Positions 1,060 through 63,472 of a stretch of 64,000 nucleotides of DNA are shown piece by piece. Numbering within the stretch: the first letter of the stretch is position 1; every line of letters begins with the position of its first letter. A model generated the notes under the pieces. It was not told the DNA's origin and did no database searches. It was given only the letters and a program-made list of their open reading frames with translations. The stretch comes from Raja brachyura. Lineage: Eukaryota. A program made the position numbers and the translations under genes. The stretch lies in assembly GCA_963514005.1 (NCBI GenBank), contig OY740809.1, positions 18,290,001 to 18,354,000 of the forward strand. Reading direction: 5' to 3'.

Positions 1060-1250
1060 AAAGAGCTGGAGACGCTAAAATATTGAGCAAAAACAAAATG
1101 CTGGGGGTACTCAGCAGGTCGTGCAGCATCTGCGGAGGGAAGTAGACAGACGATGACTCAGATCAAGACCCTTCTTCAGACCCTTCCCAACCCATATACC
1201 TCCACAGATGCTGCCTGACCAGCTGAGATCCTCCAGCACTTTGTGTTTTG
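1060..1250. mobile_element. Fold-back Penelope pLTR-derived element (older copy)
   Basis: Inverted arms acaaaatgctgg..ctcagcaggtc / gaccagctgag..ccagcactttgt with a decayed antisense HHR. Confidence 0.75.
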
Positions 1251-1782
1251 CTCGAGAAGAGAAGAGCTGAAGGAGGTTGGTGCTGTCAACTGTGTCAAAA
1301 ACCGCAGACATGGTGAAGGGCTGGGAGAAATAGTATGTCACAGATACAATGTCATAGGATGTTATTTCTGATGTTTCAATGTTGCATCAATCTCATATAT
1401 ATTTGTCACTCTGTGGTACTTGGTATTAAATTCTCTGCGCAGCAGCAACAGGTATTTTAATCTATAGGTAGGACTATCTTCTGACGGAAAGAGAGCTATT
1501 CTGGCCCCATCCATACCCCAGTAATGTAGCCAGGTTTGTGCAAGGTGGTTGAATCTGAGTGCTCGCGGAGAGGGTGCATCTCGTTAAGTTGCATTCAGAT
1601 GAACGTCAGTGACCTTTCCCTTAAAAACTTCAAATTAAATTCAGAGTAAAACTTCTGCCAGAAATATCTAATTCTCCAAACTATATTGCTGACATTTTGA
1701 TGCTACCTTTGGCCTTTTAGTCAAAAGAATACTTTGATTTTAGTACAGAAGTAAAATACCTATATTGTTCCTGAACTTTTCT

Positions 1783-1969
1783 TTTTTCTACATTTATTTT
1801 TTTAATTTTATTTTTTTTAATTTTATTAGAAGTAAATACAGGAATATGGCACCACGGTGCCTAATATATATTCACATATTACATTTTATGTACAGCTTTT
1901 TTTTTAATAATGAAAAATAAAAAGAGAGAATAGATAATAAAAGATAGAGAAACATGTGATATATAGTGT
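1783..1969 (-). mobile_element. 5'-truncated L1-type 3' end with poly(A) tail and 11-bp TSD
   Basis: T-rich tract plus tttatt (AATAAA on minus strand); TGAACTTTTCT at 1772-1782 and 1970-1980. Confidence 0.7.
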
Positions 1970-2009
1970 TGAACTTTTCTAATTCTTTTCCGCCAAGACT
2001 GTTGAGATC

Positions 2010-2315
2010 TGCAGTTAATTCCCTAATTGTCATTTTCTAAAACGTTCAGAAGGCAATTAAGAGTTGGTTATGCTGCTCTGAGTCTGGGATTACAGATTGG
2101 GTAGGGAGCACAGAATCTCTCCTCGAAATGACACTGGTGAACCAGATTATTAACATCCGGATACTTTCATGGTCACTATTAATGATGTGAGCATTTTATA
2201 CCAAAATAATTTCTTAATTACTTTGATTTAATCTCCACCACTGTTACAGTGATGTTTTGAATCTGTGTCTCCAGAAAAAAAAGCAGTTCAGGCTTTTTGA
2301 TACCAGCCCTGTTAT
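2010..2315 (-). mobile_element. Old tRNA-derived SINE, second family
   Basis: gtgaaccagat..ttcatggtcactatt block recurs at 28.2, 46.2 (+), 49.4 and 59.7 kb. Confidence 0.55.
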
Positions 2316-2629
2316 GTGCAAAATGATGGGAATCAACCACATATCCTCCCAATGTTTTACTCAGGAGCCTCCTAAACTTTAAATGCCACAACATGAGCTC
2401 GCCTCCTTCTCGCCTCTACTAATTTGTACAAAGCTCTCTTCAAATCAATATTTTGAGCAATCCCCTTCCAAACTTCCCAAACTCATTCAACCATTTCCAC
2501 TAGGCATGGAGATATGATTACCAAATGCAGGTAAAATATAAAATTGGAGCCACAACTGCCGACGTTTACTTTGAATACTGCCTAACAAAATTAATATAAA
2601 TGTTAATTAGATGTTCACCCTGATTGTGT

Positions 2630-2770
2630 TAGTAAAGGTGTCAAAGGTTACAGGGAGTAGGCAGGTGAATGGGGTTGAGAGGGAAAAATAGATCAGCCAT
2701 GATTGAATGAGGAGCAGACTTGATGCACCAAATGGCCTAATTCTGTTGCTATGCCCTACGGTCTTACGAT
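2630..2770 (+). mobile_element. CR1 LINE 3' end
   Basis: gatcagccatgattgaatg..aaatggcctaattctg, as at 11.9 kb. Confidence 0.7.
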
Positions 2771-2914
2771 ACATAGAACCAAAGATTACCTGTTGAACTA
2801 TTATTCTCCCTTTGCACTACTTTTAAAACCAGAATTGATGACTATCCTTACACCCGAGCTAGCAACATTGGAACTCTACCCTCAAGTAGGTTAGAAGAGG
2901 GAGAGCAATGGACA

Positions 2915-3142
2915 ATGGAAGGGACATGGGGGGACTGTGGTGGGAGACGGGGGGATGGAGGGGACTGTAGTGGGGGACGGGGGGGGGGGGGGGGTGACGA
3001 GGAGGGTAACTTTGTCAGCGCTTTAGGTGGCTGCTATTTGCATAACAAATTTTTCTCTGTGCCTTATCACTTTCCAATTTATTGAAGTATTAAAGTATTA
3101 ACTTTTATTAAAGTATTTCAATAAAGTATTCCATTCCACTCC
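2915..3142 (+). repeat. G-rich tandem tract followed by a non-LTR element 3' tail
   Basis: Repeated gggggactgtggtggg units, long G run, caataaagtattccattcc tail. Confidence 0.5.
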
Positions 3143-3242
3143 AGAAGAGTACCTTGATTCCTTAATCGCCCATATGTAATATACTTCCAGTAGGAAACTG
3201 AATTCATTATTCCTGTTTAATGACGGCCCAGCAAATTAAGCA

Positions 3243-3464
3243 TGTGTAGAAAGGAACTGCAGATGCTGGTTAATACCAAATATAGACACAAAGTGCTGGA
3301 GTATCTCAGCGGGTCAGGCAGCATCTCAGGAGAAAAAGGATTGGTGATGTTTCAGGTCAGGTTCGGGTCTGAAGAAGGATCCCGACCCAAAATGTCACCC
3401 ATCCTTTTTCTCCATAGATGCTTCCTTGACCCACTGAGTTACTCCAGCACTTTGTGTCTATCTT
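3243..3464. mobile_element. Fold-back Penelope pLTR element with 14-bp TSD
   Basis: Inverted arms of about 75 bp; CAGCAAA(T/A)TAAGCA at 3229-3242 and 3465-3478; HHR core with decayed GAAA. Confidence 0.85.
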
Positions 3465-4772
3465 CAGCAAAATAAGCACCCCGTTTGGTAATCCAAAGGC
3501 TCTGTTTGTGCTCAGCCCTGGGTTGTTTTTACCTTGTTTTTTAAACTGTTTTTAGTTTTGGAATTTTGCTCAGTAACAGAATGAAGCTGCCATGAAGAGA
3601 TAGATAAGGAAGTGATTGATTGACAACAAATTGTTTCATGAATAAATCGCAGTGAGCAGGGAGGAAGGAAAGTTTTTGTCTATGAATTGGAATTTCAACA
3701 ATGTGTCCAAGTGTAATCTGAATCTGATTGTCTTGAATTGGTTTCCTTCCGTGGTAATGGATTGGAATTTCCACTGGAACAGTGAAGGTGGCTGAATAGT
3801 TGGGTGCTGTTCATTCTCATATCAGTCCAGACTGTTACAGACAGGCAAGGATGGGATTGGGGTGTTTTCATCATCTCATTCTGACTGTTGCAGCTCATAC
3901 ATTTATTCTTTGGACATAATTTTCTGCACCATTGTATAAATCAGTGAATGCTCGAGTGGTTCAACTTCTTTAAGTTGAATTTGTTGCAATATTGCTCAGT
4001 TATGCAGAAGAGAAAGGATGCTCATTTTTTTTTCTGCCTTAATTGTGGGGCAGAAGTGTTTTGAAAATGGGATTGGCTGTAACTTGGTGATAAACAAGAC
4101 CAAGTCTCTTTGAATGGGAGATTATGGAGAAGGTTGAATGTGTGTGTGGATGGTCTTTCATTCTGCAGAAACGATCCTCCTCGCCTCCCCTTCCTGCTCC
4201 ATTATTGAAGATGATTATAGATCTATGTCAAACTTCTAGCGGGATGCCGTGGCAAGGATAGAGCAGCTGTATAAAAATCTCTCCTGCGTTTTATTTTGTC
4301 ACCAGGGTGTAGATTTTCAACTGAAATATGGTATAACATCCTCTCAATAATAAATATTAGGTTAGTGGTCATGAGTCTAGAGTGGGCCATAAACTCAGAA
4401 CTAAACAAACTGAGAAACAAATGGCCTTTCACTGACCCAAGTTTGATACTTTAAAATCCTTTTAAATTCAGATGACAATATTTCATTAAATGTCAATGAC
4501 ATAAACTTCATTGTATTTCAGTCAGTGCTCATCTGCAAAATTGGACTCCTCTGTCATGGTTCTGTCTGCGGACATGGTTCTGCTTATTTTTCATAGTCTT
4601 GAATGTTCGATGAATTTGGGACAAGATAATTTAGGCTTCACAGACGCTCATTCATTCCCCACCAGGCTCCAATCTGTCTGCTCTCCTCTTTCACAACAAC
4701 ATATCTGTGGCATTATTTGACATTTCCTAAATCATCAAAAATAAATCCATCACAGGGTGGGAGAAAACTTTG

Positions 4773-5065
4773 CAGAGTCATTGTCATTAAGTGATACAGT
4801 GTGGAAACAGGCCCTTCAGCCCAACCTGCCACACCAGCCAACATGTCCCAGCTACACTAGTCCCATCTGCCTGCATTTGGTCCATATCCCACCAAACCTG
4901 TCCCATCCATGTACCTGTGTAATTGCTTCTTCACTGTTGGGATAGTCCCAGCCTCAACTACAGTACCTCCTCTGGCAGCTCATCCGATACTCCCACCACC
5001 CTTTGTGTGAAAAAATGACCCCTTAGTTTCCTATTTAATCTTTCCCCCTTCACCTTAAACCTATG
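4773..5065 (-). mobile_element. CR1 (HER1-like) LINE 3' end
   Basis: Reverse complement of the CR1 3' end at 29.9-30.17 kb. Confidence 0.85.
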
Positions 5066-5764
5066 ACAATATATTCATCAAAAGGTTTCATTTTTATTTT
5101 AGTTTTTAACCAATACTAATTGGGAGAAAACCCCACCTTAAGCCTACTTGGATAAAATAGTTTTGATGTTTTTTCATCAATTAAACTCCATGCCAACAAT
5201 AAATGTTAGACATGCCATGTTTACCATTTCATTCAGCGTATTTTAAGATTGCCATAGATGATCTTCAGTGCAGACTCCTGATCAATCCATTGTTTTGGGG
5301 GTTCATATCATGATTTAGTTCAGCAGGAAGATGGTAATAGGTTTTAATGACATGACACAAATATAAAATCATACGTGTCTTTAATCTGGCCTTTGTCAAT
5401 TGGCAGCAGACTACAGATCAGTTCAGTATATATGACATCCATTCTGTCCTTTCTTAAATATCCCATGAAATAAAATAGGCCATTTGGCCCATCATGTCTA
5501 TTCCAACTCTCAGAACAAAGCCCATTTCCTCAGTTAGTTCCCTCTAATCTATTGTCACTTATGTGTCCAAGAATTCTGCCTTGATTCTCCAGCTGCGCCA
5601 AGGGTAATTTACAGCAATCAATTAACCTAACCTACAGGAACCTACTGACCTGCACACCTTGTGTCTGCAAACCAGACCTTCTGGGCTGAGCCCACTCAGG
5701 GAGATCATGCAACCATGGAGGGTTAGAGAGGCTCCAGTGGAGGTTTACACGTCTAATCCCATGA

Positions 5765-5908
5765 ATGATTGGGTTTACATATAATGAGCATTTGGGGGCA
5801 CTAGGCCTGTACTTGCTGGAGTTTAGAATGATGAAGGGGACCTCATTGAAACTTACTGATTAGTGAAAGACCTGGATCAAGTGGATGAGGAGAGGATGTT
5901 TCCACTAG
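5765..5908 (+). mobile_element. CR1 ORF2 C-terminal fragment
   Basis: LGLYLLEFRMMKGDLIETY-like sequence. Confidence 0.75.
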
Positions 5909-5909
5909 C

Positions 5910-6080
5910 TGAAAACTGCAGATGCTGGAAATCTGAAATATAGACAGAAAATTCTGGAAGAATTCAGCAGCTGAGACAGCAACTGTGGAAAGAGGATCAA
6001 TAAACATTTTGAGGCTATGCATTTATATTTCCACAGGTGCCATTTGACCTGTTGAGTCTCTTTGCATTTTTTTTCTATCA
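5910..6080. mobile_element. Old fold-back Penelope pLTR element
   Basis: aactgcagatgctggaaatc head and a decayed inverted arm. Confidence 0.55.
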
Positions 6081-6239
6081 AAGCAGAAATCCCTGTTCAT
6101 AATGCAGTTGATATCATCCAAGGTGTTGCCTTGTAATCCATGCCATGCCACCAAAGGACCACAAAGTAACTGTCAGGTATCTGTAACCTCATAAAGATTT
6201 GAGTTCTACTTTCTGAATGTAGTATATTCTTACTTACTT

Positions 6240-6545
6240 TGGCGTGGCCAGTGGCACAGCAGGTAGAACTGCTGTCTCCCAACTCCAGAGATGGTCTGGA
6301 TGCAGTTGTCTGCTTCTCCCTGCGTCTGTGTGGTTCTCACAGGTGCACTGGTTTCATCCTAAATTCCAAAGACATTCTAGTCAGTTAATGAGACATCTCT
6401 GCTGTGTACTGATGGTAGTAGAATTGTGGAAATTTAATGAGCATGTGAAAAGAATGGATTGTAGGGAAATAAGTGAGTTAACAGAATTGTCTGAGAGCTG
6501 GCATGGATCTGATGGGACAAATAGTCTCCTTCCAAGTCATCATTA
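6240..6545 (+). mobile_element. Decayed V-SINE
   Basis: gtggcacagcaggtagaactgctg head and V-domain remnant. Confidence 0.6.
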
Positions 6546-6929
6546 AAAACATGAAATACCAGGTTTATCCTCGTACGTTTATTTCTAATTCTGAGAATCA
6601 AAATTCAACCCACCAGTTTCCAGTATAAATGGTTAAATATATTTTCTGTGGTCCAGTGCTAAACCAAAGCACATACATGTATGGGGTTAACTCCGACTCC
6701 CAGTATCTTCTGAAGTCTAAATGAAAGGAAGAGCTTTGAAATATTCCTGGTAGAAAATGGAAAGTGTTTTTATTTGTGTGTGTCTGGATGCTGTATGATG
6801 GATGAGGCCAAATCAGACACCTACCTTCTGCAGTACCATTGTAATAATCGCATTCTGTTCAGTGGAACTGCTGCTGATTAGATTTATACATTTCTGTTGT
6901 GGAGTGTGAGGCTTCACAATGAATACATA

Positions 6930-7435
6930 TTGTAAAGTAAGCATGCAGGTACAGCAGGCAGTGAAGAAAGTGAATGGCATGTTGGCCAGGAGTTGTGTAT
7001 AGAAACAAAGAGGCCCTTCTGCAGTTGTACAGGGACATAGTGAGACCATACCTGGCGTATTGTGTGCAGTTTTGGTCTCCAAATTTAAGGACAGACATTC
7101 TTGCTATTGAGGGAGTGCAGCGTAGGTTCACGAGGTTAATTCCCGGGATGGCGCAACTGTCATATGTTGATAGAATGGAGTAGCTGGGCTTTTACACTCA
7201 GGAGTTTAGAAGGATGAGAGGATATCTTATTGAAACATATAAGATCATTAAGGGTTTGGACATGCTAGAGGCAGGAAACATATTCCCGATGTTGGGAGAG
7301 TCCAGAACCAGGGGCCACAGATTAAGAATAAGGGGTAAGCCATTTAGAACCGAGATGAGGGTAAACTTTTTCACACAGTGGGTTATGAATCTGTGGAATT
7401 CTCTGCCTCAGAAGGCAGTGGAGGCTAATTCTCTA
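6930..7435 (+). mobile_element. CR1 LINE ORF2 3' fragment
   Basis: LQLYRDIVRPYLAYCVQFWSP; RGYLIETYKIIKG; FFTQWVMNLWNSLP. Confidence 0.9.
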
Positions 7436-7490
7436 TCTTAAGAAACATTAGGATAAAATCCAGAATTTGTTATGGTACAGTCTCTGATCT

Positions 7491-8350: not shown

Positions 8351-8399
8351 AAACTTCTCAGACAAGTGTGGAGTATGCTTTGCAATCTTGGCATTATCT

Positions 8400-8850: not shown

Positions 8851-8977
8851 TGCAGAGTTCCTCCCACAATAACTTGGGGAGATTCAGTTTAGTACAACAG
8901 TGTGCACATATGTGTGTGCTTTATATTTTGCACAATATGTAGTTATTTTATGTAATATAAAACATTTCATCATCTGT

Positions 8978-9100
8978 CGACACAAGGAACTGCACATGCT
9001 GGTTTGCAAAAAAAGACACCCTGTGCTGCAGTAACTCAGTTGGCCAGGCACCATCTGTGGAGAACATGGATAGTGGGCACTTTGGGTCGGGACCGCTCAT
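8978..9100 (-). mobile_element. Penelope pLTR fragment
   Basis: acacaaggaactgcacatgctgg..gtaactcag..tttgggtcgggacc. Confidence 0.75.
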
Positions 9101-14535: not shown

Positions 14536-14768
14536 AAGAAGGAACTGCAGATGCTGGAAAATCCATACCGAGCGGTATGAACATTGACTTCACCAATTTC
14601 AGGTAGTCCCCGCTTTCTCCTCCCCTTTCCCAGCTCTCCCTCAGCCCACTGTCTCCGCCTCTTCCTTTCTTCTTCCCGCCACACCCCCCCACCCCCCCCC
14701 CCCCATCCTCACATCAGTCTGAAGAAGGGTCTCGACCCGAAACGTTTCTCCAGCATTTTTGTCTGCCT
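14536..14768 (+). mobile_element. Short Penelope 3' insertion with inverted tail at its 5' end and 15-bp TSD
   Basis: GCATTTCCTATGTTT at 14521-14535 and 14769-14783; end of the GIY-YIG ORF (GMNIDFTNFR*) and pLTR. Confidence 0.88.
14716..14750 (+). ncRNA. Minimal type I hammerhead ribozyme core
   Basis: CTGAAGA-A-GGGTC-TC-GACCC-GAAA-CG-TT; the downstream helix I strand appears deleted. Confidence 0.65.
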
Positions 14769-16910: not shown

Positions 16911-16984
16911 TGCTGTAACGATCTATGACTCCTTGATAAATCAATGCTGAGCCTCTCAACCCTATGATTTTCTTGGTATCCTGT

Positions 16985-25296: not shown

Positions 25297-25485
25297 GATA
25301 TGGAGAGAAGGAGTGGGTGACATTTTGGGTCGAGTCCCTTCTTCAGTCTGAGGGAGGATCTCGATCCGAAACGTCACCTGGAGAAGCTTCCTTTTCTCCA
25401 GAGATGCTGCCTGACCCGCTGAGTTACTCCACCATTTTGTGTCTATCTTCGATGTTAAACCAGATCTGCTGTTCCTTCCCACACC
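25297..25485. mobile_element. Fold-back Penelope pLTR element with back-to-back HHR remnants
   Basis: gggtcgagtcccttcttcag / tctgagggaggatctcgatccgaaacgtcacc; imperfect TSD gtg(a/g)ataga(t/c)atg. Confidence 0.8.
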
Positions 25486-25624: not shown

Positions 25625-26220
25625 CACGTTCAGGTTTATTGTCGTATACACAAGTGCAGTGAGACACAGGTATAATGAAACATCTTGACTTCAACAGCAT
25701 CACATGCACACAGTCTCAGACAACAGACTCACACAAAGCATACTTAAACTATATATAAATTACACGTAAAATTCTAAAACAAAGAAGACTGCAAAAAAAA
25801 GACATTGACATCAACACATAATTAGAAAATAAACTCCATAATATTATTGTGTAAGTAACCAGTGGAAGGGTTGATAGACACAAAGTGCTGAAGTAATTCA
25901 GCTGGTCAACCAGCATCTTTTGAGAGAAGGATTGGGTGACGCTTCGGGTCGAGACCCTTCTTCAGACTGAGAGCTGGGGCGGGAAAAGGGAAATGAGAGA
26001 TATAGACGGTGATGTTGAGAGATATGGAACAAATGAATCACAGATATGCAGAAAAGTAACGATGATAAAGGGAACAGTACAGGTTGATTCAAGAACCTGA
26101 TAGCTATAGGAAAGTAGCTGTCCCTGAACCTGATGGTGTGGAACTTCAAGCTTCTGTACATTCTGCCCTATGCTAGTTGTGAGAAGAGGGCAGGCCCTGC
26201 CTGGAGCGATCCTTGATGAT
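25625..26220 (-). mobile_element. Rex/Babar 3' end interrupted by a Penelope pLTR (25873-26075)
   Basis: MYRSLKFHTIRFRDSYFP.AIRFLN on the minus strand; pLTR with HHR at 25936-25968 (minus). Confidence 0.75.
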
Positions 26221-26755: not shown

Positions 26756-27509
26756 TTCTTTTAGTTTAGTTTCGAGATACAGCATGGAAACATTTGCAGA
26801 TGGAATCATGGTATTGAAGGCAGAGCTATAGTCAATGAATAGGAGTCTAATGTTTTGTCACATTTGATTCCAAAGATGTAAACCTACTTTAATGTAGTCT
26901 AACATTTTTATTCCAAGAAATGTACATCTGTCTACAGTTTTACATCCAGGTTTACTTTTTCTGAATTGGCTACTGGCCCGTTAATGAGGGAAATAAATAT
27001 GTATGTTGCTTCAACTGGATTTGTTTGAACATTTGATGATTGCTTATGGTCAGCAATTAAATAGGATAGAGTGGGATGATGAGGCATGTGGGTGTTAGAT
27101 GTGAAAGTGTTTTGGAGCAGTAACGAGGTTCATTATATTTAAAAACAATTAACTGTATTTTCATTCTGATTTTTCTATAATGTATGACTGCAGTATTGTG
27201 AATTGTTATCTTAGTGTCTAATAATCTGTAGTTCTGAAAGCTGGTTTCAGCATGTTTATGCAGCCATTGAAGTTGTATGTTTTAGCTGCTTTTGAAGGAT
27301 ATATTCATGCATCCTTAATATTGCAGAACAAATCTATGTGTATTCATCTGCAATCTTTTGTACATTTCTGCGTGCAAGCCTTGGAGGTGGAAGGCTTAAC
27401 TTCCTTCTGCATGTCACTTACAGCAAAATCTGCTTAAGGCTGATCTGTATTCATGCAATTTTTTTGTTCTTTCTCATTCAGAGGATGTGGACAACAGTGG
27501 TAATGTCAG

Positions 27510-27676
27510 ATAGACACAAATTGCTGGAGTAAGTCAGTGGGTCAGGCGGCATCTCTGCAGAGAAGGAATAGGTGAGGTTTTGGGTCAGGACCCTGCCTGA
27601 CCGCTGTGTTACTCAGCATTTTGTGTCTATGTGTCTATCTTTGGTATGAATCAGCATCTGCAATTCCTCCATTCAT
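27510..27676. mobile_element. Fold-back Penelope pLTR element with 12-bp TSD
   Basis: TGGTAATG(T/C)CAG at 27498-27509 and 27677-27688. Confidence 0.8.
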
Positions 27677-28077: not shown

Positions 28078-28217
28078 TGTAGGAAGGAACTACAGATGCT
28101 GGTTTACACCGAAGATAGACACAAAATGTGGAGTAACATCAGCTGGACAGGCAGCATCTCTGGATGGAGGGTATGGGTTGCGTTTTGGGTCGAGACCCTT
28201 CCTCTGACTGAGCTTGG
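28078..28217 (-). mobile_element. Solo Penelope pLTR with 10-bp TSD
   Basis: TCTTGTTTGG at 28068-28077 and 28218-28227. Confidence 0.78.
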
Positions 28218-30825: not shown

Positions 30826-31308
30826 TGCCCTTGTCCCACTTAGGCAACCTGAACGTAAACCTCTGGAGACTTTACGCCCCACCCAAGGTTTCCGTGCGGT
30901 TCCCGGAGGTTTTTGTCAGTCTCCCTAATGATTGAAAGTGGTTTCCGCTTCTTCTATGTTCCCGCGATTATTTCAAAACATTCAAGTGGAAGGTAAGGCC
31001 TTTATTTCACCCAGTTTTATTCCACCAGGGAGGTCTTACCTTCCACTACCTGCAACCTCCAGCAACCACCTTCAACTAGCATCGCAACCGGCTTCGACTA
31101 AAAAATACTGATTTTTAAACCAGCAACCTATTTTTAGTCGCGGCCAATTTTGAATTTTTTAAATAATCACCAGAACATAGAAGAAGCGGAAACCATTTTC
31201 GACCATTAGGGAGCTGGACAAATACCTCCGGGAACCGCACGGAAACCTTGGGTGGGGCGCAAAGTTTCCAGAGGTTTCCATTCAGGTTTCCTAAGTGGGG
31301 CAGGGGCA
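30826..31308. mobile_element. PIF/Harbinger-type MITE with long TIRs (about 150-180 bp)
   Basis: TGCCCTTGTCCCACTTAGG...CCTAAGTGGGGCAGGGGCA; TAA TSD at 30823-30825 and 31309-31311. Confidence 0.9.
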
Positions 31309-31551
31309 TAACTTTGCAAGTCAGGCAGCATCACTGGAGGGCATGGATAGGTGACATTTCTGGTCAGTGCCCATCTTCAGACTGATTGTCATGGGAACGA
31401 TGCCGCCAACTCTCTTCCAGCTTTATCTCTTCCCCCTCCCCCCCTCACCACCATCACAGTCAGTCTGAAGAAGGGTCCCGACCCAAAACGTCACCTATCC
31501 ATGTTTTCCAGAGATGTTGCCTGAACCAGAATTAGATGTACAGATGCAATA

Positions 31552-33756: not shown

Positions 33757-33936
33757 GTGAGTGTAGAGGCAATCATTTTGCTTCGCTACATTGGTTTTGT
33801 CAGATTTGTAAAAGTGGCACCGTGTAGCTTTTCACGAGCATGTAAAGCATCAGAAACCTTTCATATGGGAGGCATCAAAGTGTGGTAAAGTATGTAAAGT
33901 GTCATGCCCACAAGCATTTGAAGTTATACCAAGGAT

Positions 33937-34418
33937 GGACACAAAATGCTGGCGTAACTCAGTGTGTCAGGCCTCATCTCTGGAGAAAATGGATTTCGGG
34001 TCGGGACCCTTCTTTGGACCGGATTGTAGAGGTGAGGGTGAGGGGTAGAAGGGGGGTGGGCGAAGAAACTGGAAACAAGAAAAAATGCTGGAAAAAATTG
34101 GAGCCAGCAACAGATTACCTCAGGCAAGGAGGTTCCTTGATAGGCCAATAGTTGGTTTGAGACATCATTGTGAACAGTGGACCTTGTTAACCGATGTTTA
34201 ATGGAGGATGGAGGTGATAGAGGGTGATGGAGAAGTGGGGAAGGTGTCGGTGGGGAGGGGGTTGGAGGAGGGGGGGAAGGGAGTTGTGGGTAGAAGTTAC
34301 CCCAAATTAGAGAATTCAACATTCGTATCGCTGGGTTGCAAGCTACCCAAGCAAAATATGAGGTGCCATTCCTCCAATTTGCATGTGGCCTCACTCTGTC
34401 AATGGAGGAGGCCCAGGA
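33937..34418 (-). mobile_element. Penelope 3' fragment (GIY-YIG C-terminus, 3'UTR, pLTR)
   Basis: Minus strand reads LGLLH*QSEATCKLEEWHLIFCLGSLQP.DTNVEFSN. Confidence 0.82.
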
Positions 34419-34627
34419 TGTGGTCGATACGTGGGGTGTTATATTTGTAGTTCAGTTCATAAGGAATATAAACAGAAATGGAAATGAATTTGTGCAGTGA
34501 ATTCAAAATTCCACATAAATTATGAAAGCATTTGTTGAAATAGGTTGTAACAAATAAAAAAAGGAAAAGGGAAAATGTACCAGGCTCTAAATATTCTTGA
34601 GCTGAAGAAATAGGTTTGGATTTGACA

Positions 34628-34837
34628 GTAGACACAAAATGCGGAGTAAGTTAATGGGACAGGCAGCACCTCTGGAGAGAAGGAATGGGTGATGTTTTGG
34701 GTCAAGACACTTCTTCAGACCCTTCTTCTGATGAAGGGTTGCAACCCAAAATGTCACCTATTCTCTTTCTCCAGAGATGCTGTCTGACCCACTGAATTAT
34801 TTTTGTGTCTATCAACATCTGCAGTTCCTCCCTATAC
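34628..34837. mobile_element. Fold-back Penelope pLTR element
   Basis: Inverted arms; CTGATGA-A-GGGTT-GC-AACCC-AAAA. Confidence 0.82.
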
Positions 34838-36277: not shown

Positions 36278-37021
36278 CTCTGTTGGCATTTGCAATGTGT
36301 TTGGGTGAGATCAGTGAGCCTGCCTTGTGGTGCTGCTAAGTTGCGTCTATAATCATCTTCAGAAAGCACCTTCCACCATCAATTGGTACATATACATTTT
36401 ACATTTTTTGTTAAACCCAAGTTATTACAGATCCGCACATAAATATACAGCAAGAACACTTTAGGAATCGTAAGTCTGTGTGTACTGTACATGAACTCCT
36501 CGCTCACGCTGGGCAAGGACTTAGAAGCTGGTGGAGGATTCAGTGAGTGAGCATTTATCATTTCTGACAAAATCTTAAGGGTTCTTGTCATCTAAAGATA
36601 AATGCATACATTAAGTTGCTAATGATGAGTTCCTAATAATTTTCTATATATAGTATAGACAATTTCTGGTGAAGATCCACGACCAGCATGATAAATGCAG
36701 AGGTAATGGACAGAGTCAGTGATGAAGTGCTGGAGCACTGAACTCACAACCACTTTTTTTGCAATGGCTAACGTTGTGGAGATGGTGTGCGCTGAGATGT
36801 TTATGAAGAGGATGGGACTGTTTGACTCCAACCCACACTCCCCATTAGGTAGTACCCCAGGATGCCTGAAGGAGGCAGAATGTGGCTACGGCTTGTTGTC
36901 ACAGCAGTCCCAGATTCTGATATAGCCCTACAGATTCTGATATAGCTGACCACTGACCCTGAAATAATGAATCTATTTGCACCCTGTCATACCATGTAGA
37001 TATGGGTCAGAAATTAACAGG

Positions 37022-37400
37022 GAAGATAAACACAAAGTGCTGGAGTAAATCAGCGAAATCTCTCTGGAGAAAACGGATGGGTGACGTTTCGGGTCAGAAC
37101 TCTTCTTCATCGACCCGAAACTTCACCCAACCTTTTTCGCCTGAGATGCTGCCTGACTCGCTGAGTTACTCCGGCACTTTGTGTCTATGGTATAGACCAG
37201 CATCTGCAGTTCCTTCTTACACAAATTAACAGGAAATATTGATACAAGGAACTGCAGATGCTGGTTTAAAAAAAAAGACACAAAATGCTGGAGTGGGTCA
37301 GTTTGAAAGAGGGTTCTGACCTGAAATGTCACCTATCTATGTTCTCCAGCGATACTGCCTGATCTGCTGAGTTACTCCAGCACTTTGTGCCTTTTTTTTA
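37022..37400. mobile_element. Two adjacent fold-back Penelope pLTR elements (37022-37222 and about 37240-37400)
   Basis: The first is flanked by AAATTAACAGG at 37011-37021 and 37223-37233. Confidence 0.82.
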
Positions 37401-37969: not shown

Positions 37970-38165
37970 CAAACACAAAGTGCTGGAGGGACTCAGCAGG
38001 TCAGGCTGCAGCAGTGCCCTTCTTCTGTCCTGACCCGAAACACCCCCATTCAATTCCTTCCACAGATGAGTCTGAAGAAGGGTTCCGATCTGAAGCATCA
38101 CCTATCCATGTCCTCCAGCGGTCCTGCCTAACCTGCTGAGTAACTCCACCACTTTGTGTTCTACT
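37970..38165. mobile_element. Rearranged fold-back Penelope pLTR element
   Basis: acacaaagtgctgg .. ccaccactttgtgt arms; two HHR remnants. Confidence 0.72.
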
Positions 38166-40149: not shown

Positions 40150-40311
40150 TTGAGCTTCATCTCTTTTGATCTCTTTCACTTTCTTGTCTCTGTAACTGCC
40201 TCTCCCGTGACTCAGTCTGAAGATGGGTCTCGACTCAAAATGTCACACATTCCTTCTATCCAAAAATGCTGCCTGTCCTGCTGAGTTACTCCAGCATTTT
40301 GTGTCTATCTT
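40150..40311 (+). mobile_element. Penelope 3'UTR/pLTR
   Basis: tgactcagtctgaagatgggtctcgactcaaaatgtc..gtgtctatcttc. Confidence 0.8.
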
Positions 40312-40603
40312 CGAGAAGAATAATGGTTTGCTTTGAAAATTACACTCTTTTATAGTTTGTGCTACCTTCCAACATGATTTTATTTTGCAATCTAAAGCTT
40401 GATTAATGAACTTCTCAACATTAATGTTGATTAAGTAGCTCATTAGGCACTTGATAAATGCTAAAGAATCATTATTACAAATGCATCATGACTAGCTAAT
40501 GTTTGTGATTCTCACAGATGGAGTGTAAAGAACTGCATCTTTCAAGATGTTGATATTTTTTTGGAACTGAGGATTTTTTTTTCTTTTTCCTTTTGACTGA
40601 GTG

Positions 40604-47090: not shown

Positions 47091-47328
47091 GCAACAATTA
47101 TACTATTTCACATGATGCTGAATATGCAGACAACGTCAGCTTAGAATAAAGTTCTGTATTTTAAAAAAGCCTTGAGTGAAGGTAACGTGTGAGCAAATTG
47201 CATAAACATTCCTGCAGAAAATTCCAAACGAATATTTGTGAATTTGAGCAGTGGGCGGGAGTTCCTCCCTGTGCTGCTGTATTGGATATGTGCTGGAAAT
47301 GAACCTCAAAACATACATTTTCTACCCC

Positions 47329-48680
47329 GCCGACTAGGGAGGTGCCGTGGTAGTCTGGCGCGTCGATCTCTACAAAGCGGAGGCCACGCACAAACTCTCG
47401 GACACCTCCTCGTACTTACCCCTGGACCATGACCCCACTGACGAGCAACAGGCCACCATCTCGACCACCATAACCGACTTCATCGACTCCGGCTCCCTAC
47501 CCCCCCGAGCCTCCAACCTCATCGTTTCCCAGCCCCGCACGGCCCGATTTTACCTTCTCCCCAAAATCCACAAACCTGACTGCCCCGGCAGACCCATTGT
47601 CTCTGCCTGTTCGTGCCCCACCGAACACATTTCCACATACCTTGATCCCATCCCACCCCCCTTGGCTAAATCCCTCCCCACCTATGTTCAAGACACCTCA
47701 GACACTCTCGGTCGGCTCTGCGCATTCCATTCTCCAGGCCCCCATCCTCTCATCTACACCATGGACATCCAATCACTCTGCACCTCCATCCCCCACCAGG
47801 ATGGTCTCAAAGCCCTCCGGTTCTTCCTCGACCAGAGGAGCAACCCATACCCGTCCACTGACACCCTCCTCCGCCTAGCGGAGCTGGTCCTTACCCTCAA
47901 TAACTTCTCTTTTGACTCCTCCCATTTCCTCCAAACACAAGGCGTAGCTATGAGCACACGCATGGGCCCGAGCTACGCTTGCCTCTTTGTCGGGTACATC
48001 GAACAATCCTTGTTCTCGGCATACCAGGGCCCCATCCCCGACCTCTACCTCCGTTACATCAATGACTGCTTTGGTGTCACCTCCTGCACCCACACACAAC
48101 TGACTGACTTCAGCCATTTCACCACCAACTTCCATCCGGCACTCAAATACACTTGGACCATTTTCGACACTTCCCTACCATTCCTTGACCTCACCATCTC
48201 TATTGCAGGAGATACACTCCTGACCGACATCCACTACAAGCCAACTGACTCCCACAGCTACCTGGACTACTCTTCCTCCCACCCTGCTTCCTGTAAGGAC
48301 TCCATCCCTTATTCCCAATTCCTCCGTCTACGCCGCATCTGCTCCCAGGATGAGGTGTTCCACTCCAGGTCATCACAAATGTCCTCATTCTTCACTCCTT
48401 TCAGGGACCCAAGCAGTCCTTCCAGGTCCGACAGAGGTTCACCTGTACCTCCTCCAACCTCATCTACTGCATCCGCTGCTCTAGATGCCAACTGATCTAT
48501 ATCGGTGAGACCAAGCGGAGGATGGGCGATCGTTTCGCCGAACACCACCGCTCGGTCCGCAATAACCAACCCGACCTCCTGGCTCAGCACTTCAACTCCC
48601 CCTCTCATTCCGTATCCGACCTTTCGGTCCTAGGCCTCCTCCATCTTCTGGGCTTGAACATTGAATTTTCTGAATTCTGT
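47329..48680 (+). pseudogene. Penelope RT-GIY-YIG polyprotein remnant
   Basis: YIDD changed to YIND, ADKGG to AD*GG, internal deletions near 48390 and 48645. Confidence 0.88.
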
Positions 48681-48771
48681 TAACCCTCCCCTTCCCACCT
48701 CTCCCCCTGCCCTTGGGCTCCTCCTCTTCATTTTTCCTTTCTTCTCCCCCCCCCCCCCCCCCAACTCCCAT

Positions 48772-48808
48772 CAGTCTGAAGAAGGGTTTTGGCCCGAAAC
48801 GTTGCCTA
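48772..48808 (+). ncRNA. Minimal type I hammerhead ribozyme in the Penelope pLTR
   Basis: agt-CTGAAGA-A-GGGTT-TT-GGCCC-GAAA-CG-TT-gcc; all core nucleotides present. Confidence 0.75.
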
Positions 48809-48984
48809 TCTCCTTCGCTCCTTAGATGCTGCTGCACCCGCTGAGTTTCTCCAGCCTTTTGTGTATCCTCAATTTTCCAGCATCTGCAGTTCCTTCTTTA
48901 ACATTTTCTACCCAGAATGTGAGAACATTGTTTTAATTATCTAATGCCCATTATTGACGTACTGCTCCTGAACTGAAGAGGCAG

Positions 48985-49371
48985 CAATCCGCTGAGTTAC
49001 TCCAGCTGTTTGTATCTATCTTTGATTAAAACCAGTATCTGCAGTTCCTTCCTACACATTTTGTCTGCTCCACTGCAATTCTCCTCACGGCATGCCTAAT
49101 TTGAAGAAGTTCTCCTCCTCTCTCTGATGGGAGCACTGCAACATCCTCTCTCCCTGATCCCCCTCTGTGATCCCCCTGCTCATTCATTTGTTCTGTAGCT
49201 CCATCTATATCTCTCAGAACCTCTTCCCTTGACTCTCAGCCTGAAGAAGGGTCTGGACCCGAAATGTCATCTATTCCTTTTCTTCAGATCCGCTGCCTGA
49301 TCCACTGAGTTGCTCTAGGATTGTGTGACTATCTTCAATTTAAACCAGCATCTGCAGTTCCTTCCTACACA
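48985..49371 (+). mobile_element. Two further Penelope pLTR fragments (48985-49060, 49175-49371)
   Basis: Tail gcagttccttcctacaca occurs twice; HHR CTGAAGA-A-GGGTC-TG-GACCC-GAAATGTC at 49241-49268. Confidence 0.8.
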
Positions 49372-49815: not shown

Positions 49816-50237
49816 TTCATACTTATTAAAGTTTTTAAAAGCGCTATTGTTTCTACTTTTTATGTATCTTGACAATTGATAGTAAGGACTTGATATCATT
49901 GGCTGGCTGTCAGCTTGTTATCCTATTGGAACTAAATGTATTAATTGAAACTTTTACAAATAGGAACAAGTAGTTTTATTAAACTAGTGGCAAGGCAAAG
50001 TAAATGATTATCACAGCTCTTGTATGGAACTTTCATAGACTGAACATTTGCCCAGCTCTTACAAAAGCAATTGGGGTTTAGCTTCAGCATCTAGGTCCTC
50101 AAAGCAGATTTAGTATGACACCGTTCCCATTGAAAATGCAAAGGTATTTTAATATATTTCACTGCAAAATTTGTAAAAATCTAACTCATGATATTCCAAA
50201 ACCAAAAAACTGAAAATGGTCTAATTCTAGTATAATA

Positions 50238-50337
50238 GAGTATAGACACTAAGTGCTGGAGTAACTAAGCGGATCACGCACCATCTCCAGAGACAAGGGA
50301 TGGGTGACGTTTTGGGTTGGGACCCTTCTTCAGACTG
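50238..50337 (-). mobile_element. Solo Penelope pLTR
   Basis: gggtgacgttttgggttgggacccttcttcagact. Confidence 0.8.
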
Positions 50338-50913: not shown

Positions 50914-51034
50914 GAGTCTGAAGAAGGGTCTCCATCCAAAACATCACCCATTCCTTCTCCCAGTTTGAAGAAGAGCCTCATCCCGAAATATCACCCATTC
51001 CAGAGATGCTGCCTGTCCCGCTTTTTGCGTCTAT
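50914..51034 (+). mobile_element. Penelope pLTR insertion with two tandem HHR remnants and 14-bp TSD
   Basis: CCACTAAATTACCT at 50900-50913 and 51035-51048. Confidence 0.82.
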
Positions 51035-51119
51035 CCACTAAATTACCTTTTGGATGGCCAAAGGCAAATAATAGTTATTTTAAAATCGGAGAAATTTTAA
51101 CTCTTAAAATCAGAGATAT

Positions 51120-51225
51120 CTCCTTGAGTCTGATGAAGGGTCTCAACATGAAATGTCACCTATTCCTCCTCTCCAGAGATGCTGCCTATCCCACTGAGTT
51201 ACTCCAGCATTTTGTGTCTATCTTT
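51120..51225 (+). mobile_element. Solo Penelope pLTR
   Basis: gtctgatgaagggtctcaacatgaaatgtcacc..gtgtctatct. Confidence 0.8.
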
Positions 51226-51725
51226 ATATTAAGATATTTTTAAAGATCCTTTACCCATAGCCAAATATCAATTTTGCTTATTCGGTGAAACTTGAGTTGG
51301 GAATCTAATGCAGGCTTGTTACTTCATTGTGATGCTGAGGGAACACAGCTTTGTGAAGAAACAGTAAGCTAAAGCATTCTGCACAAATCCAGTGGATTGA
51401 AAAGATCTTAACAACATCCTCTGCCCCTCTGCTTCAGGGGGTTTATTAGAATCAGACACTACAAGGTCAAGCAGGAAATGTCAAATGAGTCTATAAACCT
51501 TTGAAGTGTTAATTTGAAAGCTGCTGGGGACTGGGAAGTAAAATAGTGAAATATCGCTGTAAAGATCACCATTGAGCTTCCACAATTTGGATGGTTCTAT
51601 TAAACTTTAAAGATTTCGATTACTCAATGTTTTCTGATATTTCTGTCAAGTTTTTTTTTGAAGTTTCAAGAACTACAGTGATAATGTTAACACGTTTTAA
51701 TTTGTGGCTTTGAACTCTTTTATAG

Positions 51726-52823: not shown

Positions 52824-52909
52824 GTAGGTGATAAACCATTATTGCCAGCTTTCGATACAGGGCCATCAATATGTAAAATCCATGGAACCTTTATTCAAGG
52901 ACATTGTAT

Positions 52910-53140
52910 TTGAAGATAAACACAACATGCTGGAGTAACTTAGCTGAACAGGCAGCATCTCTAAATAGAAGGAATGGGTGACATTTTGGGTTGAGACCGT
53001 TCTTGACCAGAAACGCCACCCATTCCTTCTATCCAGAGATGCTGCCTGTTCTTCTAAATTAATCCAGCACTTTGTGTCTATCTTCGGTGTAAACCGAAGC
53101 TGCAGTTCTGAACTGAACAGCATCTGCAGTACCTTCCTGC
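52910..53140. mobile_element. Fold-back Penelope pLTR element starting under 90 bp after the DLGAP3 donor
   Basis: gaagataaacacaacatgctgg / ccagcactttgtgtctatcttc arms. Confidence 0.82.
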
Positions 53141-53465
53141 TCATTACATTTAAAAAGTTGTACAGTTCTTCGATGACTTCTCCCAAATGTGTTTCAATTT
53201 CCATATGGTTGACTTTTGGATCCTCTGCATGTGAATACTAAATCAGACAATCTACTCTTCAGACTCTTCTATTACAATGTAGAACTTCCTCTCGGGACTC
53301 ACTGCAGCTCATCATCAGCGAGTAAAGAGAAGATGCTTGTTCAAAACTGAACCTGCGTACCACCTCATTAAACAGTATTTGCTAAAGGGGAAGTAGAGAT
53401 TGTTCAGTGATTAACCCCACATGGATGGTAATTGTGACACTCCAGTCAAGGAACTGATTTTAATT

Positions 53466-53634
53466 GAGAGGCACAAAGTGCTGGAGTAACTCAGCAGATC
53501 AGGCAGCATCTCTGGAGAAAAACGATAGGTGCCGTTTCGGGTCGGGACCTATCTCGCCCCTCCTTTTTCTCCAGAGATGCTGCCTGACTCGCTGAGTTAC
53601 TCCAGTGCTATATGTGTCTGCAGTTCTTTTTTGC
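53466..53634. mobile_element. Fold-back Penelope pLTR element with 13-bp TSD
   Basis: ACTGATTTTAATT at 53453-53465 and 53635-53647. Confidence 0.85.
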
Positions 53635-54860: not shown

Positions 54861-55242
54861 TGCCTTTTCTTCTTACCTTGCTGGGCACAATTCCAGTTGT
54901 TTGTTGTGACTCATAATGAGCTTTGGGTTATTTTGTAGTGCTAAAGGTACCATAGATATGGTACAGCCAGTGATAGTAGAGAAGGGGGAAAGGAATTAAT
55001 GCCAATGGTTAAAGAGTGTGGAAGAGAAATACAGGCAATGCTTTTGTTTATTCCAGTGGTTTAGCTTGAAGGATGCAGTAATTCATGCAAGAATGGAGAC
55101 TGGTAAAGAAAATGCATGCTTTTTCCGTATAGTAACTGTCATTCAGATGCACGATAAAATCGGTGCTGAAAATCCTGTTAAAAAATTGTTAAGATGGTTT
55201 TCACTCTGATTGTGCAGAGACAATCTGAAGAAACCCCCGGGG

Positions 55243-55482
55243 GTTACACAAAAAGCTGGAGAAACTCAGCGGGTGCAGCAGCATCTAAGGAGCGAAGGAG
55301 ATAGGCGACGTTTCGGGTCGAGACTCTTCTTCAGACTGGTCAGGGATCAGGGAAACGAGAGATATAGACAGTGATGTGGTGAGATAAAGAACAATGAATG
55401 AAAGATATGCAAAAAAGTATTGATGATAAAGGAAACAGGCCATTGTAAGCTGTTTGTAGTGTGAAAATGAGAAGCTAGTGTG
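55243..55482 (-). mobile_element. Penelope pLTR + 3'UTR with near-intact HHR (55303-55337)
   Basis: Minus strand AGT-CTGAAGA-A-GAGTC-TC-GACCC-GAAA-CG-TC-GCC. Confidence 0.85.
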
Positions 55483-55764
55483 ACTAATGTTTAAGCCCCA
55501 TGCCTGCATTAGTGCTGTGCTGGCTGCTCAGAAATAAGTCAATGCTTAAGGAACTCTCTTTGTTGTACACCTTCACCCCCTCTCTCCAGTGCCACATCTT
55601 GCACCGGGGTGCATAATAGGGATGCTATGACTTTGCCAATGACACTCGTATATACTTATCCACAAGTTCACCCTCAAAGGAAAATGAGCCTGGCAGAAGT
55701 TGAGGGAAAACACAAATGATTTAGTGGAACCTCCGCCCATTGACTGTGTGGTTTGCTTCTTGTT

Positions 55765-58220: not shown

Positions 58221-58342
58221 TGTGTAGGAAGGAACTGCAGATGCTGGTTTAAACCGAAGATAGACACAAGGTGCTGGAGTAATTCAGCATCCGTGGATAA
58301 AAGGAATAGGTGACATTTTGGGTAGGAACTCTTCTTCAGACT
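58221..58342 (-). mobile_element. Solo Penelope pLTR
   Basis: tgtgtaggaaggaactgcagatgctgg..cttcttcagact. Confidence 0.82.
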
Positions 58343-58819: not shown

Positions 58820-58993
58820 AAAGAACTGCAGATGCTGGTTTATGCGGAAGATAGACACAAAATGTTGGAGTAACTCAGTGGGTCAAGCAGAATGGGTCTG
58901 AAGAAGGGTCGTGACCCAAAACATCAGCTATTCATTTTTTCCAGAGATGCTGCCTGACCCGCTGCGTTACTCCAGCATTTTATGTCTATCTTC
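58820..58993. mobile_element. Fold-back Penelope pLTR element
   Basis: Inverted arms; CTGAAGA-A-GGGTC-GT-GACCC-AAAAC. Confidence 0.82.
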
Positions 58994-59066
58994 GAACTGT
59001 AAACATACCTTTCAGACTTGGCATGGAAAGTGGTTATGTCTCCAGGAACTAACATTAAAACACTTA

Positions 59067-59615: not shown

Positions 59616-59634
59616 TCATCTTTCACTGAACATG

Positions 59635-61511: not shown

Positions 61512-62035
61512 GACATAACAGACTGCAGTGCTGGAATCTGAAGCAAACCCGCTATTCAGTGGGTCAGGCAGCATCTGTAGAGGCAGAGGGATGGTCAACG
61601 TTTCCGGTCGAGGCCCTGCATGTGCACAAAGCGTGTAGAGGGCAGATAGCCACATAAAGAGGTGAGAGGGAGAGGTGAGACAGGGGTTGGCAGGCAACAG
61701 CTGGAACCAGGTGAGGAAGGGGTTGGTAGGAGATGGGGGCAGACGTGTGGTGGGGAGGGTGGAGGTAGAGACAGAGGCTGGAGGACGATAAGTGGTGACA
61801 CAAGGGGGCAGGCGCTGAGTATGTAAGTTGGTAAGTGAAATCAGGAAGGGTAATTGGCAGATGGAACTAGTTGGCGAAGGTGAATCAAACTGGGTGACAG
61901 AGGAGATGGAGGGTGGTTTGGTGATCCTGACTGGATCAGAAGTAGAGAGTGAGGAGCACAGGTGAAACTAGATAATTCCATGTTCATGCCATTAGGTTGG
62001 AAACTACCCAGGCAGAGTATTAGGTATTGTTCTTC
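61512..62035 (-). mobile_element. Older Penelope 3' fragment
   Basis: pLTR at 61.5-61.6 kb; aattccatgttcatgccattaggttggaaactaccc is the GIY-YIG ORF end. Confidence 0.75.
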
Positions 62036-62036
62036 T

Positions 62037-62390
62037 CATAGAGTCGCAGTGTGGAAACAAGCCTTTCTGCCCAACTTACCCACACTGATCAACATGTCCC
62101 ATCTGCACTAGTACCACTTGCCTGCATATGGCCCATATTCCTCTAAACCTGTCCTATCCATGTACCTGTCTAATTGCTTCTTAAACGTTGCAATAGTCCC
62201 TGCCACAACTCCCTTCCATACACCAACCACCCTTTATATGAAAAAGTTTCCCCTCAGATTCCTATAAAATCTTTCCCCCTTCACATTAAACCTATTCCCT
62301 ATGGACCTCGATTCCCCAACTCTGGGCAAAAGATTCTATGCGTCTACCCGATCTATTCCTCTCATGATTTTATACACATTGTATATACAG
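62037..62390 (-). mobile_element. CR1 3' end
   Basis: VYKIMRGIDRVDA; catagagtc tail. Confidence 0.85.
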
Positions 62391-62569
62391 ATGCTAGTTT
62401 GGGTTTGTCCACACCTTGGCATTCGGGAAGACAAAGGATATACAGGTTGGTGTGAGAATGGGAAGGGGCCATGAACTGGGAGTTCATTAGGGCTAAGTAT
62501 AATCTCAGTATTGTGCTTTTTAAAACAATTCTCATTCCATGTAACATCCATCAATAAATTCCACTCCTT

Positions 62570-62790
62570 CCTGGTCTGAAGAAGGGACACAACTGGAAAT
62601 GTTTCCTATCCAGGTTCTCCAGAGATGTGTGTAGAAAGGAACTGCAGATGCTAGTTTATACCGAAGATCGACACAAAGCCCTGGGTTCACTGCATTGTGT
62701 CTATCTCCAGAGATGCTGCCTTCCCCGCTGAGTTACTCCAACACTTTTTGTCTCTTTTAGTAAATCAACATCCGCAGTTCGTTGTATTTC
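62570..62790. mobile_element. Nested Penelope pLTR elements
   Basis: tctccagagatg is duplicated around an inverted insert (about 62628-62703). Confidence 0.7.
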
Positions 62791-62934
62791 TATTTGATAT
62801 CTCATTTGTACAACATGATTGCTTTTGGCTTCTGTTTTGACAACATGAAGTATAACAATAGAATGGTAACAAGTTCCCACGTTCTTCCGAATCTTTAAAT
62901 CCCCACCTAACTAATGGACAATTCAACATAAAAT

Positions 62935-63350
62935 CAGGAGCAGCCAACTCTCACGCATTGAGCGTGAGAATCACGCATTTCGCCAAATTCTCATGCTCTC
63001 ACGCTGATCACAGAATTTTTCACGGTCTGTCCTGAGAAATTATGTGACCAATGAGAATTTCAAAACTAATATCAACTGCATGGGCCGCGGGTGTTGGGGA
63101 GCCGGGGCGGAGGGAGGGATGGAGTCTCAGTGTAAGAGTCCCGGGGGTTCGTTGGAAGCGTTGTGCCACTGCCGTGAGAGTCTCTGTGCTGACTTCGCCC
63201 TGGTGACCAGCATGGACCAGGCTGCGGCTCGGTGCATCCTGGAGAACAACCAGTGGCTGCTGGAAGTGGGTACCAAGCACTTTGCAGAAGCATTGGAAGA
63301 TAGTGGCCTTCAAATGGGGGTGGTTGGAGAAAGCATCCTCCTTGCCTGCT
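62935..63350 (+). mobile_element. Putative hAT-like non-autonomous DNA transposon left part carrying a captured gene fragment; right end not found
   Basis: CAGGAGCAGCCAAC resembles CAGGGYTGCCAAC termini; clustered TCACGC subterminal repeats and a CTCACGC-ATTGA-GCGTGAG palindrome. Confidence 0.55.
63119..63265 (+). pseudogene. TDP2: TDP2-like exon 1 fragment (N-terminal UBA-like domain) ending at a splice donor
   Basis: RESLCADFALVTSMDQAAARCILENNQWLLE aligns without gaps to TDP2 RRLLCVEFASVASCDAAVAQCFLAENDWEME (human, from memory); GAA|GTGGGT donor follows. Confidence 0.68.
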
Positions 63351-63364
63351 AGATTTTACCTGCA

Positions 63365-63472
63365 GGACAGGTGACGTTTCAGTCTGAAGAAGGGTCTCGA
63401 CCCGAAACTTCACCCGTTCCTTCTCTCCAGGGATGCTGCCTGTCCCGCTGATTTTCTCCAGCATTTTTGTAT
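63365..63472 (+). mobile_element. Penelope pLTR with near-intact HHR (63381-63416)
   Basis: agt-CTGAAGA-A-GGGTC-TC-GACCC-GAAA-CT-TC-acc. Confidence 0.82.

Follow-up and report, generated by a model that had tools for sequence, protein, structure and literature searches.

Short hammerhead-bearing repeats in Raja brachyura as probable copying by-products of a young Penelope-like retrotransposon

Introduction

A 64,000-nucleotide stretch of the Raja brachyura genome (contig OY740809.1 of assembly GCA_963514005.1, positions 18,290,001 to 18,354,000; the whole stretch is called the window below) is strewn with short repeats that carry a hammerhead ribozyme core. As a first-pass annotation of this DNA had observed, the majority of these copies contain no open reading frame (ORF). 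This raises a simple question: are they a mobile family in their own right, as the label "retrozyme-like" in that annotation implies, or the debris of a larger element? Our answer, to which we give a probability of about 0.75, is that each short copy is the terminal piece, hammerhead plus tail, of a young Neptune-type Penelope-like element (PLE), left behind as a dead by-product of that element's copying, and not a separate ribozyme element. Short copies share their variants with copies attached to the parent element, tandem arrays of the unit are absent from the window, and we read the decay of inserted copies as near-neutral; for these three reasons the retrozyme-like label is, on sequence evidence, not supported.

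Dispersed minimal hammerheads of PLEs are already published, and the present family is a very abundant example; the supplementary alignments of PMC4209133 may already list it. A literature search found no paper on a fixed 5' edge, on promoter overlap or on this host group, although that does not prove that none exists. The value of the family lies in the very large, young natural sample of insertion ends that it provides within one genome. Two of its features, a fixed 5' edge and a class of copies beginning at the predicted cleavage site, are a countable handle on how an ORF downstream of the reverse transcriptase (RT) start is copied, on the origin of partial tandems and on cutting in vivo.

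Results

Abundance of the hammerhead unit

Using a profile built from natural copies (E<1e-3), we found 54 hammerhead-unit fragments in the window (52 with the first seed), covering 4,842 bp, or 7.6% of its bases; the reversed window and five block shuffles gave no match. Once 12-13 head-to-head pairs are merged, the fragments occupy about 41 places. The 5' part is kept in 40 of the 54, comprising 15 pair arms, 20 solo copies and 5 with a recognisable 3' untranslated region (UTR). The first-pass annotation had the consensus right, and saw correctly that the same unit terminates an RT/GIY-YIG Penelope remnant, here placed at 47326-48914. Its count of about 30 copies was too low, and its unit of 100-230 bp shrinks to about 97 or 133 nt, the longer ones being head-to-head pairs or units with 3' UTR attached. 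Nor is the density similar to that of short interspersed nuclear elements (SINEs): hammerhead fragments outnumber the one tRNA-type SINE counted (12 copies).

Genome-wide (2.7 Gb), the exact 31-mer core given in that annotation occurs 12,457 times and an exact 41-mer that identifies the young subfamily 28,355 times; neither reversed control occurs at all. The two patterns are mutually exclusive, and exact core copies together exceed 40,000, compared with 4,000-9,000 in coelacanth and Xenopus (PMC4209133).

The parent element

With the RT of the remnant as query, the genome yielded 36,255 first-look candidates; among the 135 that were scored, many had identical scores and open frames near 1,200 amino acids (aa). 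Twenty such loci share a 4.0-kb unit in the order hammerhead, tail, 1192-aa ORF, 3' UTR of ~240 nt and hammerhead again. They are arranged as partial tandems or inverted, and identical young copies occur. In a representative locus (L058), the single 1192-aa ORF encodes an RT followed by a C-terminal GIY-YIG domain (RVT_1, E 4.8e-4; GIY-YIG, E 1.7e-3; both below the Pfam cut-offs), and its protein has 1,418 homologues, the best of them annotated as RT.

The translation contains a C-x4-C-x2-C linker, matching the CX2-5CxxC linker ahead of the endonuclease that marks the Neptune and Nematis clades (Craig et al. 2021, PMC8557442). The other traits of endonuclease-containing (EN+) PLEs of this type are present as well: a single ORF running from RT to GIY-YIG, pseudo-long terminal repeats (pLTRs) in partial tandem, inverted copies and an optional 30-40-bp tail. 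Judged by these sequence traits, the parent is a young Neptune-type EN+ PLE; it departs from the described Neptune/Nematis elements in a long low-complexity N-terminal region, which brings the ORF to 1192 aa.

Ends and arrangement of young copies

We number positions from the C of CUGA as 0, which places the predicted cut between +27 and +28. The ends of young copies were read from 104 unique copies, taken from the first 100 of the 28,355 41-mer matches and their neighbourhoods, all on contig 1. Sixty-six of them start 0-7 nt upstream of CUGA, and the other 38 extend into the 3' UTR or ORF, with 5' extensions of 19 to more than 1,800 nt. The 66 short copies divide into 22 in head-to-head pairs, 22 solo with an exact 8-17-bp duplication and 22 solo without one. 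The 3' ends are fixed too: 96 of the 104 copies stop at one of two points (64 at +87..97, 32 at +126..133), whose spacing equals the optional 30-40-bp tail. The arms of one head-to-head pair often differ in their 3' end (+95 and +127, for example), so that priming twice, once on each target strand, would fit better than one hairpin. The junctions of the pairs are centred on a CAG-T-CTG mini-palindrome.

Solo and opposite-strand minimal hammerheads are already on record (PMC4209133), and the two 3' ends have a counterpart in the Anolis element Poseidon (PAc; Frangieh et al. 2024, PMC11167929), where two such ends represent two internal RT start sites bracketing the tail. In PAc, too, the main template is uncut RNA and extension occurs on both target strands. 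The anole and skate elements differ in the position of the start sites: here the first ATG, at about +163, comes after both of them, whereas in PAc they fall within the ORF, at 111-118 nt. The available part of PMC11167929 does not describe short copies with a fixed 5' edge.

These ends suggest how the copies could arise. The RT would begin at either of two sites internal to the RNA, as has been shown in vitro for the anole Poseidon, would copy uncut RNA, and would mostly stop at the CAGT edge, probably the 5' end of the RNA. The resulting 97- or 133-nt complementary DNA (cDNA), joined to the target alone, would give a solo copy; joined to another cDNA, generated from the opposite strand, it would give a head-to-head pair. 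Otherwise the RT would run on into UTR and ORF, leaving the UTR-linked copies.

By-product or independent family

If the protein-free copies had amplified independently, as the first-pass annotation supposed, one might look for variants of their own. Short and UTR-linked young copies have the same variants: the variant at +41 occurs in 9/66 short and 4/38 UTR-linked copies (p=0.76), and the first 88 nt of the young subfamily hold no short-specific diagnostic, and hence no lineage separate from the autonomous element. Non-LTR retrozymes are defined by tandem arrays (bioRxiv 10.64898/2026.07.22.740005). They resemble the present copies in their PLE-pLTR origin, type I hammerhead and lack of protein, and differ from them in being tandem with a hammerhead per unit, whereas here we see dispersed monomers or head-to-head pairs, stubs tied to ORF-bearing masters. 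Tandem Repeats Finder detected no array of the unit in the window, where no complete hammerhead recurs in two or more consecutive units. Copies begin with the core still uncut. At most about 2 of the 104 young copies directly follow another unit (by eye), and the short arrays found elsewhere in the genome lack the core.

Might the short units still be a non-autonomous retrozyme- or SINE-like family, solo copies with an internal promoter that are re-mobilised in trans by the Penelope protein? Such a family would have fixed ends and target-site duplications, as the units do; the promoter-like motifs described below lie entirely within the unit, long units include the first RT start and ~36 nt past it, and rotifer pLTRs act in trans (PMC3846280). 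Two observations weigh against the by-product account on this score. The variant test drew on copies chosen by an exact 41-mer, which limits it and leaves room for some non-autonomous spread; and the older subfamilies are mostly short, with a UTR in 11 of 84 copies that keep the 5' part and none in the remaining 73, old UTRs being harder to detect. Set against an independent family are the equal variant spectrum of short and ORF-linked young copies, the lack of arrays in the window, and the requirement of the anole RT for ORF sequence 3' of its start site, which the stubs lack (PMC11167929). We consider it improbable that the short units spread as such a family, and retain the by-product account.

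Two recurrent core-deleted variants were considered as self-propagating subfamilies and rejected. They make up ~24 and ~14 rows, by eye, in the first 100 of 5,389, and they have long flanks in common, so we regard them as passengers of another repeat, a point that also speaks against an independent family. Such core-deleted stubs inside another high-copy repeat with shared flanks were seen at seven loci (L290, L303, L318 and L306-L309). Chimeras joining a young-type UTR to an older-type tail number 3 among 121 rows and may represent an ancestral subfamily.

The fixed 5' edge

Among ORF-linked subfamilies the UTRs are 82-299 nt long, pyrimidine-rich and unrelated, and similarity begins abruptly at CAGT. 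With A(-3) taken as +1, the edge reads TCAGTC or CCAGTC, followed by CGANC at +18..22 and GWYV at +29..32. These match the registers of the initiator (Inr), the revised motif ten element (MTE) and the DPE (downstream core promoter element) given in PMC5580651; MTE- and DPE-like motifs were both in register at 3 of 1,107 background sites. An Inr-like edge with motifs in register raises the possibility that the stubs are cDNAs that ran off at the start of the transcript, and we put the odds that the CAGT edge is the 5' end of the RNA at about even.

The edge could instead mark where copying of a longer or antisense template stops or switches (a protein-bound site, a splice acceptor, or self-priming at CAG-T-CTG), with the stubs still dead by-products. 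Several points tell against the start-site part of our account and some of them favour this alternative. The promoter match was made post hoc and overlaps the hammerhead constraints, and the R of the DPE and the CGG of the MTE are unmatched. Six full-length loci have a whole hammerhead upstream; in every one a partial tandem extends further in that direction, and CAGT is the start of none (0/6), so a simple start-site model must invoke strand transfer or read-through. In D. virilis an intron of 75 bp lies 46 bp downstream of the transcript start (PMC2377424), and its 3' end abuts helix I (PMC4209133), so that CAG may be a splice acceptor here; the pyrimidine tract plus CAG indeed resembles a 3' splice site. 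The mini-palindrome lies in the middle of the head-to-head junctions, and PMC3846280 put forward antisense self-priming. Evidence of the opposite kind comes from the lack of a predicted stable structure directly upstream (z 0.16), the lack of any exon-joined copy among 104 upstream flanks and of a good splice donor in the young-subfamily UTR (both by eye), and the frequent difference in end between pair arms (+95 and +127). We judge a stop or switch point somewhat unlikely.

We do not count as cap evidence the further G found upstream in 12 of 17 young copies starting at G(-2) (by eye), because re-annealing to the GTCT repeated at +10..+13 explains it. Nor did we use as evidence a set of contigs from related organisms, guessed to be RNA: their depth peaks over the unit, their loose ends cluster at its 5' edge, and no canonical splice joint occurs among those listed.

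The hammerhead and its copies in the window

The core CUGANGA / GAAA / UH is complete in the masters and in 62 of 234 unselected fragments. As the first-pass annotation had recognised, it is a minimal type I hammerhead of a Penelope-like pLTR: the extra base (A) between 9 and 10.1, the G10.1-C11.1 pair and the loopless palindromic 15.2-16.2 (ACGU) are all present, fitting the definition of Cervera and de la Pena (2014, PMC4209133). The metazoan motifs of that study are also alike in being mostly single and derived from truncated elements, some on opposite strands, at thousands per genome. Helix II has 4 bp here, one of them U-A or U-G, compared with 7-8 in Schistosoma; helix I has only 2 bp in ORF-linked copies (U-G or U-A, then G-C), compared with a typical 4-5 and with the 2 bp described for D. 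virilis. A covariance-model search, suggested as a check on the annotation, did not confirm the motif: an Rfam scan of the window returned 16 matches at E<=10, none of them a hammerhead family.

All 11 core bases plus H are kept in 8 of the 54 window fragments, and the core together with helix II and the 15.2-16.2 pair in 3 (14719, 48776 and 49241). Of the five cores singled out earlier as best preserved, these three keep their helices, although everything 3' of the cut is absent at 14719; the other two have pairing flaws, a lost palindrome pair at 63384 and a helix II mismatch at 55303-55337. The features of the family in the window are as follows.

47326..48914, plus strand: 5'-truncated dead copy of the autonomous PLE, 91-94% identical to the full-length unit L058; RT part, GIY-YIG part (E 4.5e-4, below cut-off), short 3' UTR, hammerhead and long tail; internally deleted twice (about 366 and 60 bp)
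48772..48914, plus strand: hammerhead and long tail ending that element (profile search); core, helix II (one G-U) and palindrome intact
14715..14750, plus strand: intact core with 3' UTR ahead; all sequence 3' of the cut deleted
49240..49363, plus strand: solo long unit, core intact, 15.2-16.2 is U-G
55241..55485, minus strand: young-subfamily copy, 98% to the L058 unit; 3' UTR of ~150 nt, 3' end of the short type, mismatch in helix II
63380..63477, plus strand: solo short unit, core bases intact, palindrome pair broken
25868..26068, minus strand: older copy, 3' UTR attached
40213..40314, plus strand: older copy, 3' UTR remnant, G12 lost
33924..34418, minus strand: older copy linked to a GIY-YIG C-terminal remnant
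1061..1253: head-to-head pair
3251..3469: head-to-head pair
25299..25477: head-to-head pair, joint at the CAG-T-CTG edge of the core
27506..27668: head-to-head pair
34622..34829: head-to-head pair
37015..37400: two neighbouring head-to-head pairs
37970..38161: head-to-head pair
52910..53108: head-to-head pair
53454..53620: head-to-head pair
58821..58998: head-to-head pair
62574..62782: three-fragment cluster with one head-to-head pair within
28084..28208, minus strand: solo long unit, candidate 12-bp target-site duplication, three core bases lost
31306..31526: two divergent short copies, spacing 80 bp
50224..50335, minus strand: solo unit, G12 lost
50916..51227, plus strand: three decayed copies in one orientation
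58229..58341, minus strand: solo long unit, G12 lost
5914, 8984, 10121, 26646, 32722, 35492, 37620, 40951, 41958, 42155, 45206, 48977, 61522: other decayed solo fragments

Whether the core is conserved more than its flanks, another check attached to the annotation, has a divided answer: ORF-linked masters do not vary at the core bases, but in inserted copies the essential G12 is lost as CpG bases generally are (changed in 38/93 older copies, compared with 29% at other CpG bases). Across three subfamily majorities 10 of 11 core columns are invariant, as are 44 of 60 tail columns. We read this as near-neutral decay after insertion, as far as sequence comparison can tell. One figure runs counter to it: internal core A/T positions have changed less often than tail A/T positions (23/379, 6.1%, versus 154/1,533, 10.0%; p=0.017). 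A whole-core figure (5.3% versus 10.1% changed) was set aside as conservation evidence, being biased by alignment edges and by the mixture of subfamilies; the G12 and A/T comparisons are the fairer test.

Folds compatible with a hammerhead are 6-10 kcal/mol less stable than the predicted minimum, in which the core pairs with the tail. The hammerhead is thus predicted to be cargo, misfolded when alone and in the master RNA at best a slow, protein-assisted dimer cutter; protein-assisted hammerhead cleavage has been reported (PMC11167929). Nearly all genomic stubs are predicted to be inert as ribozymes.

Copies that start at the predicted cut

Genome-wide, 283 copies start at +28, 241 at +31 and 108 at +25. 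The starts at +28 amount to ~1% of the young subfamily (283 versus 28,355), which points to uncut RNA as the main template. These rare copies could be fossils of the 3' cleavage product, in which case the hammerhead would cut in vivo at a low rate, an addition to the by-product account and not a replacement for it. Our sample of possible fossils consisted of 69 rows inspected from the first 100 of a search, 30 of which came as loci and 39 of which were fetched after rows with a 7-nt internal duplication had been removed by eye; rows with a core still upstream were excluded by script.

We scored 50 loci of the youngest variant on contigs 1-12 whose truncation falls between +24 and +35; 14 begin at +28 (p=4e-5). 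Of these 14, 6 follow an extra G, and some lie in 63-nt arrays. Among short tandem junction types, 8 of 19 start at +28 (by eye; 4 loci are shared with the contigs 1-12 set). The excess was not repeated in held-out contigs (4/36, p=0.35), where tandem arrays start at +28, +29, +31, +33 and +35; pooling all contigs gives 18/86 (p=2e-4). By eye, no peak at +28 appears in the first 100 of 1,571 rows, nor any peak in the first 100 of 5,389 older-subfamily rows. Since +28 is itself a G, a copy that ends at +29 and gains an extra G looks like a start at +28, and anole RNA-seq contained no reads ending at the cut (PMC11167929). Cleavage in vivo is thus unproven, and we entertain it tentatively, leaning towards its absence.

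A broader proposal would make the 133-nt unit a three-in-one module: an Inr-MTE-DPE core promoter laid over the hammerhead, together with a terminal repeat acting as the R region does in LTR elements. Stubs would then be frozen strong-stop cDNAs, transfer of the cDNA to the 3' repeat would let copying proceed through UTR and ORF and produce the partial tandems typical of Penelope elements, and starts at +28 would record cleavage in vivo. We regard this combination as doubtful.

Short tail-only tandem arrays without a core were seen at three loci (L177, L183 and L387). They contain 63-nt units from +28 to +90 with variable junctions; a further unit of 159 nt, spanning +29 to about +191, is repeated in 15 or more copies.

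Other repeats and frames in the window

A SINE-like copy headed by a hepatitis delta virus (HDV)-type ribozyme lies at 49489-49658 (plus strand). Its 165-nt family had 2,578 first-look candidates, and the 40 scored are 91-96% identical. Its first base coincides with the start of a compact HDV ribozyme fold of CPEB3-like type (RF00622; 26.7-31.1 bits, where the gathering score of 35 is not reached), which was matched in the window copy and in 4 of the 5 loci scanned. The copies end in AAG repeats, have 10-12-bp duplications and, unlike the hammerhead stubs, start at the predicted cut. A literature search found no paper linking an HDV-like ribozyme, CPEB3, a retrotransposon and shark.

An open frame of 382 aa with a histidine run at 51765-52913 (plus strand) has no Pfam match; we take it to be the first large exon of a DLGAP-family gene, and if it is, the window is intronic. 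A broken L1-like element at 19348-23284 (minus strand) shows, by eye, ORF1-like, endonuclease and RT pieces. Fragments of long interspersed nuclear element RT lie at 10654-11160 (plus), 16940-17620 (plus) and 7794-8348 (minus), with RVT_1 at E 3e-14 and an ALKBH8_N match typical of RT C-termini. The tRNA-type SINE, ~155 nt long and presumably the one named HE1, occupies 12 places from 226 to 56064.

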